Below the pieces are notes generated by a model. The model was given only the letters and a program-made list of their open reading frames with translations, was not told the origin of the DNA and searched no databases. The translations under genes were made by a program, and so were the position numbers. Positions 8,309 to 33,926 of a stretch of 64,000 nt of DNA are shown one piece after another. This DNA is from Chloroflexota bacterium (lineage in GTDB: Bacteria; Chloroflexota; UBA11872): assembly GCA_026706485.1 (NCBI GenBank), contig JAPOYR010000006.1:21194-85193 (forward strand), in the 5' to 3' direction. Every line of letters starts with the position of its first letter. Within the stretch, counting starts at the first letter, position 1.

Positions 8309-8566
8309 ATGAGCCTCAACATCAAGAACGAAGAGACCTGCCGCCTGGCGCGCGAGTTGGCGCAGCTGACGGGGGAGACCATGACCGGTGCGATTACGGT
8401 TGCGCTGGAGGAGCGTCTAGAGCGCGAGCGGCGCGAACGCAGCGTCGAAGAGCGCCTGCGGGACATGCGCGCGATTGCCGCGCGTTGTGCCAGCCAGCTT
8501 GGCGACGGTCCATCCGCCGCTGATCACGGCGACTTGCTCTATGACGAGCGGGGCCTGCCGAAGTGA
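8309..8566 (+). CDS. vapB: VapB/FitA-like antitoxin
   Basis: 85 aa from MSLNIKNEETCRLARELAQLTGETMTGAI (Rv0623/FitA-like N-terminus). Stop overlaps the GTG start of the downstream PIN gene (GTGA). Confidence 0.55.
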   Translation: MSLNIKNEETCRLARELAQLTGETMTGAITVALEERLERERRERSVEERLRDMRAIAARCASQLGDGPSAADHGDLLYDERGLPK

Positions 8567-17311: not shown

Positions 17312-17659
17312 GTGCTGACGGATGACCAGCGCGTCTCGATGGGAGCACGCATGATCGCGAAAACGGGTCGCCTCGCGGACGTTGACGCGACGGTCCTAGA
17401 GGACGCCTTGGCCGAGATCGAAACGCTGACGGCGCACCTCTCACCCGACGTTCAGGATTCAGTGGCCAAGCAGTTCGTAAAAGCGTTTGGCGAGTGCCCC
17501 ACGCTCAGTCTGGAGCGTAAATCCGCACACTCGACACGTGAGGTCATTGCCCGAGTTCAACTCCCGGACCGTTGCCGGGAAATCCTCGCCGCAGTCCGGG
17601 CAGGTGAGGTTGAGCGTGTGGTTCTGATTGAGTTCCAGGCGCCAACGGGAGCGTCGTGA
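17312..17659 (+). CDS. Hypothetical soluble protein (115 aa), transposon cargo
   Basis: ORF with moderate GC3. Overlapped on the opposite strand by a 74-aa CxxC...CxxC zinc-ribbon ORF (17459-17683). Which strand is real is unresolved. Confidence 0.35.
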   Translation: MLTDDQRVSMGARMIAKTGRLADVDATVLEDALAEIETLTAHLSPDVQDSVAKQFVKAFGECPTLSLERKSAHSTREVIARVQLPDRCREILAAVRAGEVERVVLIEFQAPTGAS

Positions 17660-20514: not shown

Positions 20515-20874
20515 TTGCGGGTGCGCGTGGACCTGAAGCGCGTCCCGGCAGTCTTTTTCCGTTCCCGGTCCGGGGCGGAGCCGGTTCGGGACTGGCTGAG
20601 GTCACTGGATAAGCAGGATCGATTCAGGATTGGAACGGACCTCAAAACGGTTGAGTTCGGCTGGCCGATCGGAATGCCGACCTGCCGACCACTTGGACAG
20701 GGCCTTTACGAGGTGCGCACGACCCTGGGCAACAGGATCGCCCGAGTCTTGTTCTGCATCGGGGACAGTCGAATGATCCTGTTGCACGGATTCATCAAGA
20801 AAACGCAGAAGACGCCTAAGCCTGATCTCGACCTGGCACGAGCGCGCCAGCGGGCCTGGGAGGACGCATCGTGA
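20515..20874 (+). CDS. higB: HigB-like RelE/ParE-superfamily toxin (Gp49/DUF891-like)
   Basis: PAVFFRSRSGAEPVRDWLRSL...GQGLYEVRTTLGNRIARVLFCI...ILLHGFIKKTQKTP matches the HigB/Gp49 killer-protein family. Toxin gene precedes the antitoxin, 4-nt overlap. Confidence 0.65.
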   Translation: MRVRVDLKRVPAVFFRSRSGAEPVRDWLRSLDKQDRFRIGTDLKTVEFGWPIGMPTCRPLGQGLYEVRTTLGNRIARVLFCIGDSRMILLHGFIKKTQKTPKPDLDLARARQRAWEDAS

Positions 20875-21173
20875 CGACTACATCCAACCCACACCTTGGG
20901 TCTACCCTGGATGACCTGCTCGACTCCGACGGTACTCGTGCCGAAGCTGAGGCCGTCGCGGTCAAGCGCGTCATCGCCTGGCAGATCGATGAGGCGATGA
21001 CTTCCGAACGCCTCGGCAAGGCCGAAATGGCGCGGCGCATGAATACGAGCCGGGCTGCCCTGGACCGCCTGCTGGATCCCGACAACGTCTCAGTGACGCT
21101 CCGGACGCTGCACAAGGCCGCTGCCGCCCTCGACAAGCGACTCGAGATCGGGCTGGTCGACTCCCGCACCTAG
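20871..21173 (+). CDS. higA: HigA-like XRE-family HTH antitoxin
   Basis: 100 aa; helix-turn-helix ERLGKAEMARRMNTSRAALDRLL. Coupled to higB. Confidence 0.7.
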   Translation: MTTTSNPHLGSTLDDLLDSDGTRAEAEAVAVKRVIAWQIDEAMTSERLGKAEMARRMNTSRAALDRLLDPDNVSVTLRTLHKAAAALDKRLEIGLVDSRT

Positions 21174-30933: not shown

Positions 30934-31371
30934 CTAGAGGTGGACGACTTCGAGGTCTTCCCAATGCCGACCGAGATACTCCGCCACAAGGCGCCGGTGG
31001 CAATGTTCCGGCGTGTCCTCGCTGCATAGCAAGCATCCGTCGGCGAGGGCCTGCCGTACGCTCGGCGTTTCCTGGATGCGCCGATCATCCATCAGCGCGA
31101 GAAACTCTCGCTCGTAGGTCGCCCAATCGCGATGCTCTTTGCGGTATGCGTCGAGCATCTCCTTGGTGGGCGCCAGATTGGGCGCATGGACGTACTCCAT
31201 CCGACAAATCTCGCGGAGAAAGTAGGCCAGGTCATCTCGCTTGGCGAAGCCCGCCAGTTGCGAGACGTTGTTCAGCCGCACATCCACGACTCGCTTCGCA
31301 CGCGAGGCCAGAAGGCGCCCAAAGAAGTCGGCGGCGGAGGTCTTTGTGAAGCCGATGGTGTAGAGCCTCAA
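30934..31371 (-). CDS. DUF488 (YeaO-like) family protein, copy 2
   Basis: 145 aa; N-terminal LYTIGFTKTSA and C-terminal LLCSEDTPEHCHRRLVAEYL motifs of DUF488. ATGA overlap with the upstream DUF488 gene. Confidence 0.7.
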   Translation of the reverse strand: MRLYTIGFTKTSAADFFGRLLASRAKRVVDVRLNNVSQLAGFAKRDDLAYFLREICRMEYVHAPNLAPTKEMLDAYRKEHRDWATYEREFLALMDDRRIQETPSVRQALADGCLLCSEDTPEHCHRRLVAEYLGRHWEDLEVVHL

Positions 31372-32042
31372 GAGCCATTCTCCCAGTCGTCCCCGCCGAC
31401 GGTCGATTCCGCGCCGACATACGCCACTTTCGCCGTCTGACGGGCCATCGCATCGGCGATCAAATCATCACGGGAGCGAGGCGTCCCCCCGTTGTCGGGA
31501 CCCTCCATCGCGAACATTTCAATCTGCTGGACTGGCGACAGCTTGTGCAGGCTCACCAGCCGGTCCATGGCGGCGGCGTGCTCTTCAAGGCTGCCGTCCG
31601 CATGGATGTGTGCCACGTCCACCTCGCGGTCGACCAGCGCCCTGGCGACCAGCAGCGTGCGGTGACAGTCCAGCGGCTCCTTCTCCGCGCACATCAGCAC
31701 GATGCGACGCTCATCGGCGCCGTGAACGATCTGCCGGATGCCGTCGTCGAACTCGTCGCTTTCCGCCAGCCGGTCGTATCGCACTCTCCCCTCGGCGTCA
31801 TAGCACGACCGATCCCGTGGTCGGCCGCCCAGCTCTCCGCCCAGGAACGCATAGCCGATTCCGGCGCTTTCCAGCGCCTCGGACAGGACTCGATGGCCGA
31901 AGTGCGGTGTATACCGGCTGTACGGCGACGACCGAACATCCGCCACTTCATCGATGCCATGCGTCCGAAGCAACTCCAGAAACGCTTCAAGCGAATGGTT
32001 GGAGTGCCCGATGGTGAGAACCGGGTGCTGCGTTGCGCTCAC
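31368..32042 (-). CDS. DUF488 (YeaO-like) family protein, copy 1, with C-terminal extension
   Basis: 224 aa; VLTIGHSNHSLEAFLELL and VLMCAEKEPLDCHRTLL motifs, plus about 80-aa acidic tail. Confidence 0.7.
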   Translation of the reverse strand: MSATQHPVLTIGHSNHSLEAFLELLRTHGIDEVADVRSSPYSRYTPHFGHRVLSEALESAGIGYAFLGGELGGRPRDRSCYDAEGRVRYDRLAESDEFDDGIRQIVHGADERRIVLMCAEKEPLDCHRTLLVARALVDREVDVAHIHADGSLEEHAAAMDRLVSLHKLSPVQQIEMFAMEGPDNGGTPRSRDDLIADAMARQTAKVAYVGAESTVGGDDWENGS

Positions 32043-32054
32043 GGCACTTCCGCG

Positions 32055-32801
32055 TCAGGGTCTGATGACGGCGGCAATGAGTTTATACGCAAAGCCCTCG
32101 AACGGTTCGCCGAGGCTGAGGGTCAGGAATCGGTCGTCGTCGACCACGAATGAGCCCGCCCCCAACTCCGTGGCCGCTTGTTCGCTGGCGGGATCGGTGA
32201 TGCGGAGCGAATAGATATTCCCGTGGTAGCTGAACTTGCCCCGCAGCCGATAGGCATTGTTCTCCAGATTGCGGGAAATACGTACTTTCAATCTCTCGAT
32301 CTTGATAAGGCGTAGTGAACTGCGGAGAGAATTGGCCAGATCTTCCGGCACGCTGTCGTTGAGACCGCTTCCGCTGTTGTGCCCGTTGATCCAGAGTGTC
32401 TCGGATTGGTCGGCCCACTGCGGCAAGGTGTTCCAGGCGATGCGGCCAATCTTGGCCCAACGGCGCTTGGGGTCGAGCACCCAGTTCTCTTGCTGGTAAC
32501 CCTGCGGCCTTGCGCGAAGAACTGGCACGTCGATGACGTCGAGAGTGTGCGGCTCGCTCCCATCTTCGAGTTGCTGCTCGTACGCCGAGACTTCCTCGTG
32601 ATCTCGATCGCTGACCGGCCGGATCCACCCGCCCGTGCGTCCGTCCGCGAGGAGCTCTTTCCCGGCCACGCAGCGCCCACCCATCTTGCGCGAGTTTGCG
32701 AGACAGACGATGCGCTTGGTGGTGGCGGACGACCTCGGATTGCTTCTCGCCCAAAGTCGATCGAGCCAGTTCATCGTTCGCGACTGGTCCAGGCTCAACA
32801 C
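32055..32801 (-). CDS. Uncharacterised 248-aa protein heading the DUF488 operon
   Basis: No recognisable family. Conserved-looking core RIVCLANSRKMGGRCVAGKEL...GGWIRPVS. C-terminal half has markedly lower GC (about 50%). Confidence 0.4.
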   Translation of the reverse strand: MLSLDQSRTMNWLDRLWARSNPRSSATTKRIVCLANSRKMGGRCVAGKELLADGRTGGWIRPVSDRDHEEVSAYEQQLEDGSEPHTLDVIDVPVLRARPQGYQQENWVLDPKRRWAKIGRIAWNTLPQWADQSETLWINGHNSGSGLNDSVPEDLANSLRSSLRLIKIERLKVRISRNLENNAYRLRGKFSYHGNIYSLRITDPASEQAATELGAGSFVVDDDRFLTLSLGEPFEGFAYKLIAAVIRP

Positions 32802-32930
32802 CCTAAGGCTGTCACCCTATCTCTATGGCGAGCCCCGCTGGGCGCCGGTCGAGGAAGGGCGACAGTTGACCACGATGCACCCATGCGGGAAGGTCAACCC
32901 ACCACCAACGCATCTGTGACGGAGGCGGCG

Positions 32931-33782
32931 ATGGCCGTTGAGGCGGCGACGCAGCGGATTGATGACCGGGACTGGGCGGCGCTGACCCTTGGCGAGCGCA
33001 TCCGGCAAATCGAGGTCGAGGGCTACCTGGTGCTGCCCGACCTGCTCACCTCCGAGCAGGTGGCCGGCCTCAAGGCGGTCACGGCGACCTGGGAAACCAT
33101 TGCCACCGACTACAGCAAGAGCCAGCAGGTGCGCCCCGGCGTGGAGTTCGCCGGCGGTCTGATGAACGATCTCATCGCGAATCCGCCGACGCTGGAGTTC
33201 CTGCGCGCGCTCTGCGGTCCGGACATCATCCTGATGTCGGTGGCCTACGCCCGCTCGGAGCCGGGCCATCCCGGCATCAGCCTGCACACCGACGGCCAGC
33301 CTTACGGATCCAGGATCTTCGGTCAGGGCGGCAGCACGCCGTTCATGGTCCGGGTGCTCTACTACCTCGACGACCTGACGCCCGAGGTCTCGCCGTTTCG
33401 CGTCGTACCGCGGTCGCATCTCTCGTTCCACGCCGACGCGAATCCATATCTCCGGTTCGAGGGCCACCCCGAAGAAGTCATGGTCCCGGCCAAGGCGGGA
33501 TCGGCCGTGCTGATCAACCACCGCGTGTTCCACGGCAACTTCCCCAACACCGGCGATCGGCCGCGGGAGATGATCGCCATCGCCTATCGGCCCGCCTGGG
33601 CGGGGCCGCAGGGCGACGTGCCGGCCTGGGACGCCGATGCCGTGGCGGCGCTGCCCGACCACGTGCGCTCGCTCTTCGCCGACCGCAACACCCGCCACTG
33701 GCTACCCGAGGGCGGCAACAAACCCGAGGGAATGCAGTCCGAGGCGCCGGGCATGAACCCCAGCCGCTGGGAGTTGGTCTAG
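32931..33782 (+). CDS. Phytanoyl-CoA dioxygenase (PhyH)-family Fe(II)/2OG oxygenase
   Basis: HTDGQP...HLSF...NHRVFHGNFPN facial-triad region. GGAGG RBS before MAVEAATQR. Confidence 0.7.
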   Translation: MAVEAATQRIDDRDWAALTLGERIRQIEVEGYLVLPDLLTSEQVAGLKAVTATWETIATDYSKSQQVRPGVEFAGGLMNDLIANPPTLEFLRALCGPDIILMSVAYARSEPGHPGISLHTDGQPYGSRIFGQGGSTPFMVRVLYYLDDLTPEVSPFRVVPRSHLSFHADANPYLRFEGHPEEVMVPAKAGSAVLINHRVFHGNFPNTGDRPREMIAIAYRPAWAGPQGDVPAWDADAVAALPDHVRSLFADRNTRHWLPEGGNKPEGMQSEAPGMNPSRWELV

Positions 33783-33817
33783 GAAATCTCTGAGTAAACC
33801 CCTAATCCGCGCCAAGC

Positions 33818-33875
33818 CGTTCGTGGTGAGCTTGTCGAACCATGAACGGCCCTTCGACTTCGCTCAGGGCGAACG
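33818..33875. repeat. Intergenic repeat family E copy 2
   Basis: ccgttcgtggtgagcttgtcgaaccatgaacggcccttcgacttcgctcagggcgaacgg. Confidence 0.6.
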
Positions 33876-33926
33876 GATCAGGGTCGAATCGATGGGCTTT
33901 TTCAGAGCATTCCTAGCGGTTTCGAG

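Follow-up and report, generated by a model that had tools for sequence, protein, structure and literature searches.

The 64,000-nucleotide stretch of contig JAPOYR010000006.1 analysed here (hereafter the window), from Chloroflexota bacterium assembly GCA_026706485.1, contains three adjacent minus-strand genes that we refer to as A, B and C, or jointly as the trio. Based on their profile matches and gene order, we assign the region as one operon and as an instance of PDC-M45, a catalogued three-gene module composed of DuOB (A), a long DUF488 protein (B) and a short DUF488 protein of the N3a subclade (C). PDC denotes 'phage defence candidate', a group of 145 cassettes nominated on the strength of copies nested in BREX, DISARM or type I restriction-modification operons (bioRxiv 10.1101/2024.01.29.577857). 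PDC-M45, which is cassette CAS_00153 (FAM_01974>>FAM_00888>>FAM_01897; Payne et al. 2024, supplementary file 8, bioRxiv 10.1101/2024.01.29.577857), was nominated by 'guilt by embedding' (Payne, Hughes, Fineran & Jackson 2024, bioRxiv 10.1101/2024.01.29.577857), and its defence function is a prediction. The window locus itself will hold no surprise for a specialist, as existing tools (PADLOC, Pfam) detect it; added here are two architectures of the module with a common core, its embedding in BREX and Hma operons, a hypervariable, low-GC segment in the second OB fold (OB2) of DuOB, DuOB-DUF488 and RecQ-DuOB fusions, and an ancient syntenic copy in Chloroflexota. The genes and junctions of the operon are as follows.

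32055..32801, minus strand: gene A, DuOB (dual OB-fold), PADLOC PDC-M45A; 248 amino acids (aa) from the GTG at 32801
31368..32042, minus strand: gene B, long DUF488 paralogue, PDC-M45B; core domain plus acidic C-terminal extension; 224 aa, GTG start
30934..31371, minus strand: gene C, short DUF488 of the 'active N3' subclade, PDC-M45C; 145 aa, TTG start
32043..32054, minus strand: A-B spacer of 12 nucleotides (nt) with a Shine-Dalgarno-like GGAAG, read from the sequence
31368-31371, minus strand: 4-nt B/C overlap, TTGA (the TTG start of C over the TGA stop of B), read from the sequence
32802..32933, no strand assigned: divergent intergenic region between gene A and the PhyH gene; presumed promoter location

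Protein A matched the Pfam family DuOB (PF22557) along the entire profile (positions 1-210 of 210; 222.7 bits against a cut-off of 27, E 7e-66), which gives a name to the 248-aa protein that a first-pass annotation of this DNA, made from the letters alone, had been unable to place. The same annotation had read both downstream genes as DUF488 from their motifs. The sequences read TIGHSN...LMC-x7-CHR in B and TIGFT...LLC-x7-CHR in C, and Pfam agreed: B and C matched DUF488 (PF04343) with E 2e-24 (87.0 bits) and E 4e-22 (79.7 bits), respectively, against a threshold of 22.2. C also passed the cut-off for DUF488-N3a ('active N3 subclade', PF22751; 45.2 bits, cut-off 27). Since B scored only 13.8 bits against the thresholds of 27 for N3a and N3i, membership of DUF488-N3a is limited to C. 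The PADLOC models were matched nearly end to end, by A (PDC-M45A, E 1.3e-81, residues 27-247 on profile positions 3-224 of 230), B (PDC-M45B, E 6.7e-74, residues 5-214 on positions 3-197 of 204) and C (PDC-M45C, E 4.2e-71, residues 1-145 on positions 1-144 of 145), and the adjacent, one-strand order A>>B>>C that defines the PDC-M45 cassette is the order of the window copy. No NCBIfam model matched A, B or C.

The stop codon of A (TGA) is followed by 12 nt (cgcGGAAGtgcc) and then by the GTG start of B. The first-pass annotation was right about this gap but gave the junction of B and C as an ATGA overlap, where the sequence reads TTGA. Because homologues of A are 227-240 aa long and begin with MNWLD, the true start of A is probably the ATG at 32774, giving 239 aa. 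The operon promoter presumably lies in the divergent intergenic region; scans around the operon found neither a sigma-70-like site nor a terminator, and an Rfam scan around the operon gave no match. As previously annotated, the operon is flanked by an M24 peptidase gene that is convergent and a PhyH dioxygenase gene that is divergent. The other neighbours are metabolic.

Conservation, embedding and mobility of the module

With a profile of 29 DuOB proteins, at least 490 matching stretches were found in 185,579 species-representative genomes, a lower bound obtained by scanning two narrow peptide patterns. The best 79 loci were used for locus analysis. A, B and C were collinear on one strand in 78 of these 79 loci, the exception being a 2.4-kb contig that ends after A; this bears out the earlier description of the three genes as one tightly coupled unit, and the co-occurrence of the trio is conserved beyond the window. 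Most of the trios belong to Chloroflexota/Dehalococcoidia, and others to Nitrospirota, Alpha- and Gammaproteobacteria, Acidobacteriota, Vicinamibacterales, Latescibacterota, Binatia and Thermodesulfobacteriota. Pairwise divergences of A, B and C were correlated (r 0.59-0.72), and single-chain fusions of DuOB to DUF488 occur (P0271, P0363, P0385 and P0158). Taken together, collinearity, correlated divergence and fusion support the view that A-B-C behaves as a functional unit. At the level of single families, an exhaustive profile search of 1.84 billion representatives recovered 3,812 DuOB clusters at 50% identity, while a word-index search with 90% clustering recovered more than 7,400 relatives of B. 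Eight loci (L015, L021, L025, L043, L046, L060, L061 and L063) carry tandem DuOB genes in the order A-A-B-C, which suggests that DuOB can duplicate and perhaps acts as a heteromer.

In several genomes the trio is inserted into defence operons. HmaB and HmaC immediately enclose it in L032 (Nitrospira) and L034 (Latescibacterota), HmaB is directly upstream of it in L058 and HmaC directly downstream in L073, with both Hma genes in the flanks of each of the latter two loci. Two further loci place it inside BREX operons, with the arrangements BrxC-PglX-[A-B-C]-PglZ-BrxL (L094) and PglX-[A-B-C]-PglZ-BrxL (L093). On the Agrobacterium plasmid pAt1D1108a, the trio has a CBASS operon (cyclase, HORMA and AAA ATPase, with a helix-turn-helix/ImmA pair) on one side, with the TcmP-DUF5131 pair, integrase and Phd antitoxin genes on the other. 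A survey of 147 immediate neighbours in 74 loci identified as defence-type neighbours type II restriction enzymes/DUF4928 (5), HmaB/HmaC (4/3), Schlafen-like proteins (5) and Swt1-like HEPN proteins (4); MADS proteins, DUF499/DUF1156 and PARIS AriA were also among the neighbours of the trio.

Relatives of DuOB were present on 23 plasmids, including plasmids of 4-36 kb from Citrobacter, Klebsiella, Salmonella, Leclercia, Acinetobacter and Moraxella. The plasmid module reads DuOB - DUF488 - DUF4326, with DUF4326 usually fused to a minimal SLOG (mSLOG) domain. Its DUF488 protein is the counterpart of C, the most conserved component of the trio (phmmer E 9e-53 against an Acinetobacter plasmid DUF488), the match to B being far weaker (E 3e-5). 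Because the plasmid DUF488 pairs with C and not with B, the invariant core of the module is DuOB plus a C-type DUF488, and the third enzyme is either a long DUF488, as in the window, or mSLOG-DUF4326. One or other architecture was found on 8 IMG/VR contigs, and in L095 the trio occupies a phage early region, following an XRE repressor-like gene and beside Sak4, a helicase and a Cas4-like exonuclease. DuOB had no match among the 50,697 sequenced phage records of INPHARED, and a search of complete E. coli genomes by megablast only found no near-identical copy of the Citrobacter plasmid version. From this distribution, we regard the trio as a mobile accessory module.

Two other gene associations were observed. 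A phosphotriesterase-family gene (PF02126) neighbours the trio in 12 loci, and in many Dehalococcoidia (L011, L012, L014, L023, L024, L026, L028 and others) a same-strand open reading frame (ORF) of ~316 aa lies ~100 bp downstream of C; this ORF may be the phosphotriesterase-family gene, and the association could reflect either lineage synteny or a functional link. Genes for DUF5131 and the 'three-Cys-motif partner' TcmP adjoin the trio in three unrelated genomes, from Thermodesulfobacteriota, Binatia and an Agrobacterium plasmid (L027/L082 7857-9846, L039 and L102 9086-11230). The pair may be a co-travelling candidate system; its orientation relative to the trio, seen in L082 and L102, is not the same in both.

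History of the copy in Chloroflexota

The base composition of the operon is atypical. Its guanine-plus-cytosine (GC) content is 62.4%, compared to 67.7% for the 64-kb window, and ranks at the bottom among 1868-nt windows across the 64 kb (z = -3.0; 0.08% of them as low). The 47-55% that had been counted by hand over 32221-32340 agrees with a computed value of 50.8%, and 120-nt windows there fall to 48%. GC at third codon positions (GC3) is 0.755, 0.773 and 0.767 in A, B and C, respectively, compared to 0.860 +/- 0.045 in the 57 other genes (z -1.9 to -2.3), and codon adaptation of the three genes is low too (z -1.3 to -2.3).

From the low GC the first-pass annotation had argued for horizontal acquisition. 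The atypical composition and the mobility of the family are in keeping with that view, but not with a recent arrival. The trio is found at the same M24/PhyH site in five other species-level relatives (L080 and L001-L004), in which its GC is 59-62.5% compared to 68-69% around it, and a metagenome contig (L101) has the same arrangement as the window. Recent horizontal acquisition is rejected by this synteny together with the same low GC in five related species, and because the syntenic relatives carry it as well, the low GC is either old or intrinsic. Identity of the window to L001-L004 is 80-97% for flanking proteins, 77-97% for C, 82-93% for B and 66-74% for A; dN/dS (the ratio of nonsynonymous to synonymous divergence) at the trio across the syntenic relatives is 0.11-0.26. 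An NCBI protein from a Chloroflexi metagenome-assembled genome (MAG) matches B at 100% identity. Taken together, these comparisons indicate that the trio was acquired long ago in this lineage and has been kept under purifying selection. A scan of metagenomes for empty sites, with the M24 peptidase as query, returned three contigs, one with the trio and two ending inside the M24 gene.

Several side observations concern this locus and its surroundings. In L004 (MAG COS3_bin_17), an interruption of the DuOB frame at 8531-8556 splits the ORF, and the corresponding NCBI protein, P0019, has only 167 aa, with B and C intact; the interrupted gene is either a pseudogene or the result of an assembly error. 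At 33779-33916 of the window, an insert of ~138 bp that is single-copy in the window separates the PhyH and GFO/IDH/MocA genes, which in L080 and L001-L004 are only ~10-20 bp apart. The insert has internal hairpins and, at its borders, imperfect inverted repeats of 23 nt (CTAGGAAATCTCTGAGTAAACCC / GGGCTTTTTCAGAGCATTCCTAG), which give it the look of a miniature element, mobile or structured. Elsewhere in the window, three small plus-strand ORFs (20515-20874, 20871-21173 and 17312-17659) have the lowest GC3 (0.75, 0.79 and 0.68, respectively) and codon adaptation and may have been acquired as well; the first two share 4 nt, in the manner of a toxin-antitoxin pair.

DuOB and the two DUF488 proteins

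To our knowledge, DUF488 is a very large family without a measured activity, and DuOB is likewise biochemically unstudied. In the literature searched, DUF488 received incidental mentions only, the terms 'DuOB' and 'dual OB' gave unrelated matches only, and no mention of 'PDC-M45' was found in the papers that could be searched. Alignments and structure models delineate the following features.

32442..32723, minus strand: first OB fold (OB1) of DuOB, residues 27-120, from the alignment of invariant columns and model secondary structure
32658-32705, minus strand: OB1 motif CLANSRKxGGRCVAGK, conserved basic/aromatic
32610-32627, minus strand: OB1 motif WIRPVS, conserved basic/aromatic
32481-32495, minus strand: OB1 motif QQENW, conserved basic/aromatic
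32150..32450, minus strand: hypervariable, lowest-GC segment of A, residues ~118-218 (linker plus most of OB2), from sliding comparison and GC
31659..31691, minus strand: predicted active-site motif of B, C118-A-E-K-E-P-L-D-C126-H127-R128 (strand end, loop, helix start)
30994..31026, minus strand: predicted active-site motif of C, C116-S-E-D-T-P-E-H-C124-H125-R126, from conservation
31371..31625, minus strand: C-terminal extension of B, residues 140-224; a conserved strand/helix part, then an acidic, partly disordered tail

The structure model of A contains two OB-fold barrels and resembles OB proteins that bind single-stranded DNA (ssDNA); a sequence search of the PDB with the A profile found no relatives. 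DuOB is basic, with an isoelectric point (pI) of 8.9. The invariant residues of OB1 (ANSRK, R43-C44, G47-K48, W59-x-R61-P62 and E105-N106-W107) map to strands 1-3, which form the usual ligand face of an OB fold. DuOB is also found as the C-terminal domain of a RecQ-like helicase (P0361; 859 aa, with DEAD, Helicase_C and RecQ_Zn_bind domains). Four other DuOB proteins (P0036, P0242, P0258 and P0293) have an N-terminal extension of ~100 aa without a Pfam match, which in P0036 looks by eye like an XRE-type helix-turn-helix.

The second half of DuOB behaves differently from the first. Across the family, the majority-residue fraction is 0.66-0.77 in OB1 and 0.51-0.63 in the hypervariable OB2 segment. 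Relative to L004, nucleotide identity is 0.64-0.65 within 32150-32450 compared to 0.92-0.97 elsewhere and in the flanks, and the GC of the segment is 48-51% in 120-nt windows. A is the least conserved of the three proteins (C > B > A; mean pairwise identity 0.65 for C and 0.55 for A), and compared with its syntenic relatives it shows a synonymous divergence (dS) of 0.7-1.0 (flanks 0.13-0.6), with nonsynonymous divergence (dN) raised too and dN/dS ~0.2. The high dS points to recombination or allele replacement as opposed to positive selection, and the pattern fits recombinational replacement of a specificity segment. A hypervariable second half is what one would expect of a component that contacts the invader.

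Both B and C keep the Cys...Cys-His-Arg motif, with conservation of 95% or higher over 79 sequences (the window copy and homologues drawn from 78 loci); in B, residues C118, E120, C126, H127 and R128 were invariant in 31 homologues. The TIG and C-x7-CHR motifs occupy residues 10-15 and 118-128 of B and residues 5-9 and 116-126 of C. In the model of B, a strand (114-118) ends in C118 and a helix (127-138) begins at C126-H127-R128, the overall fold being Rossmann-like and similar to cysteine phosphatases and tetrapyrrole methylases. Burroughs and Aravind (2023) reportedly placed DUF488 in the rhodanese-phosphatase superfamily, with which this arrangement agrees. The model of B matched Cys-dependent phosphatases, an RNA 5'-phosphatase included, short of significance, and sequence searches of the PDB with B (single sequence and profile) and with C found no relatives. 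The acidic tail of ~80 aa noticed earlier on the first DUF488 copy corresponds to residues 140-224 of B, with 16 D/E and 6 K/R, a net charge of -9.8 and a pI of 4.5. This extension contains predicted helices at 155-166, 170-177 and 191-210, has low model confidence (pLDDT <50) at residues 168-185 and 208-224, and is covered by the PDC-M45B profile.

Proposed mechanism, alternatives and known systems

We tentatively propose, with about as much doubt as conviction, that the trio is a conflict module for nucleic-acid end processing in which DuOB recruits both DUF488 enzymes. The conserved OB1 of DuOB would bind single-stranded nucleic acid or an exposed DNA end, while the variable OB2 would set the specificity for a target or partner. 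DuOB would then recruit B and C, which probably act as a complex with it, and at the phosphatase-like Cys...Cys-His-Arg site of each enzyme a terminal phosphate or sugar-phosphate on that end would be removed or transferred. As a result, invading phage or plasmid DNA might be rendered unfit for replication, ligation or packaging. The biochemical side of the scheme draws on the RecQ-DuOB fusion, the likeness of B to Cys-dependent phosphatases, the motif kept in B and C and the hypervariable half of A; what the enzymes act on, the reaction, their assembly with DuOB and any effect on phages are all conjectural. A wider claim, which we hold to be on the unlikely side, is that DuOB-DUF488 modules represent a new immune class or mobile-element weapon that covalently edits nucleic-acid termini, moving or removing phosphate or sugar-phosphate groups via a cysteine enzyme of a biochemically unstudied fold, with the hypervariable, recombining OB2 as specificity determinant and an interchangeable third enzyme (long DUF488 or SLOG-DUF4326) tuning the chemistry.

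Part of the evidence pulls against the proposed end-processing role. The first-pass annotation had compared the trio to small conflict or defence modules, a guess that is backed by the PDC-M45 assignment, by the BREX and Hma embedding and by the CBASS island of the Agrobacterium plasmid, but not by the window itself, where there is no defence island: the window copy and its five syntenic relatives have metabolic neighbours and no Hma, BREX or TcmP. No Hma or BREX homologue was found in the 64-kb window, such that the embedding that led to the nomination of PDC-M45 is absent from this copy; embedding is a basis for nomination and not a requirement for each copy, so its absence here does not bar membership of PDC-M45. 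Across loci, most immediate neighbours are non-defence genes, the commonest encoding phosphotriesterase-family (12 loci) and VTT-domain (8) proteins, and many copies of the trio are for that reason best described as solo. The models do show an OB fold in A and a phosphatase-like fold in B, but the Foldseek search of the B model against the PDB returned nothing significant, and the spacing of the motif (C-x9-R, within C-x7-CHR) is unlike the canonical CX5R phosphatase loop, although the strand-loop-helix topology in B fits. Positive selection on A is not supported, dN/dS being ~0.2 with both dN and dS raised. Finally, neither an experiment on defence by PDC-M45 nor a mechanism proposed for it was found in the literature searched, in which validation studies covered other candidates.

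We likewise questioned whether the module instead serves the mobile elements that carry it, by way of counter-defence or establishment, protecting their own DNA ends or ssDNA entry, or destroying a nucleotide-derived immune signal. Small plasmids carry it beside replication, partition and addiction genes, and on one mobilizable plasmid of 4.2 kb two of the four annotated coding sequences plus the DuOB match constitute the module. The phage early region with Sak4 and the Cas4-like exonuclease next to the trio points the same way, as does the third gene of the plasmid version, mSLOG-DUF4326: SLOG-DUF4326 fusions are typical of viruses, and ORF83, a phage protein resembling SLOG, acts as an anti-Avs factor (bioRxiv 10.1101/2025.06.06.658234; PMC9503650; PMC7824862). 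Plasmid carriage fails to discriminate, however, because defence systems are commonly plasmid or prophage cargo, and service to an element sits poorly with the nesting of the trio in BREX and Hma operons on chromosomes and within a CBASS island, with the lack of a match in 50,697 sequenced phage records, and with its stability in Chloroflexota chromosomes that have no mobile-element genes nearby. We consider this explanation improbable, and the same holds for a role in accessory nucleic-acid repair, in which the trio would heal ends (3'-phosphate, 5'-phosphate or cyclic-phosphate) of the cell's own ssDNA or RNA. Long-term vertical inheritance, under purifying selection (dN/dS 0.11-0.26), at a single chromosomal location surrounded by metabolic genes, the phosphatase-like fold with an RNA 5'-phosphatase among the matches, OB-fold and RecQ-fusion contexts typical of DNA maintenance, and frequent occurrence beside non-defence genes in Dehalococcoidia would all suit a repair factor. 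A hypervariable, recombining DNA-binding subunit would be unusual for one, however, and the patchy distribution (the at least 490 matching stretches given above), the atypical composition, the carriage on plasmids and phage-like contigs and the BREX/Hma embedding argue against it.

A toxin-antitoxin or abortive-infection cassette, in which one DUF488 protein arrests growth, is restrained via the acidic tail of B or via DuOB, and is freed upon infection, strikes us as highly improbable. The trio is compact, translationally coupled and plasmid-borne, it is often located beside CcdAB, RelE/ParE, HicB, BrnA, Phd and HEPN/NTase genes, and the acidic, partly disordered tail of B could mimic nucleic acid and occupy the basic DuOB. 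Nevertheless, searches of Pfam, NCBIfam and PADLOC matched none of A, B and C to a known toxin or antitoxin family, and both DUF488 paralogues keep the catalytic motif, such that neither resembles a dedicated inhibitor. The premature stop in A of L004 (or assembly error), with B and C retained, counts against A as an essential antitoxin.

The trio is of practical interest, being compact, self-contained and widely mobile and offering a tractable route to the chemistry of DUF488 and DuOB as well as a way to test one of the 145 'embedded' defence candidates. Plasmid-borne versions occur in Citrobacter, Klebsiella, Salmonella and Acinetobacter, which brings experiments within reach of standard hosts.

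Compared with known systems, the modelled enzyme, B, resembles cysteine-dependent phosphatases with a protein tyrosine or dual-specificity phosphatase (PTP/DSP) fold that act on non-protein substrates, such as laforin, SEX4, PTPMT1 and the baculovirus RNA 5'-phosphatase, which share 7-15% sequence identity with B. These have the canonical CX5R loop, whereas the loop of B and C is longer and includes a second Cys and a His. Since tetrapyrrole methylases score equally well against the B model, the fold alone does not fix the chemistry of DUF488. DuOB shares its OB-fold topology with the tandem-OB ssDNA binders (RPA, PriB/SSB, CST and Pot1/TEBP), and strands 1-3 of its OB1 likewise carry conserved basic and aromatic residues. 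The variant on Citrobacter pCF1807-5 and Acinetobacter pApiAE13b, DuOB - DUF488(N3a) - mSLOG/DUF4326, has a DuOB that is ~30% identical, an equally tight operon and a third gene of the same enzyme clade; it differs in that a DUF4326 enzyme replaces the long DUF488 (B), the C-type gene is placed first, and the carriers are small plasmids. PDC-M45 itself is the nearest system. Although the window copy lies neither inside nor beside any defence system, its three proteins match the M45A, M45B and M45C models over almost their whole length in the same order on one strand, and the trios of its relatives are embedded in BREX and Hma operons, the type of embedding behind PDC/HEC nomination.

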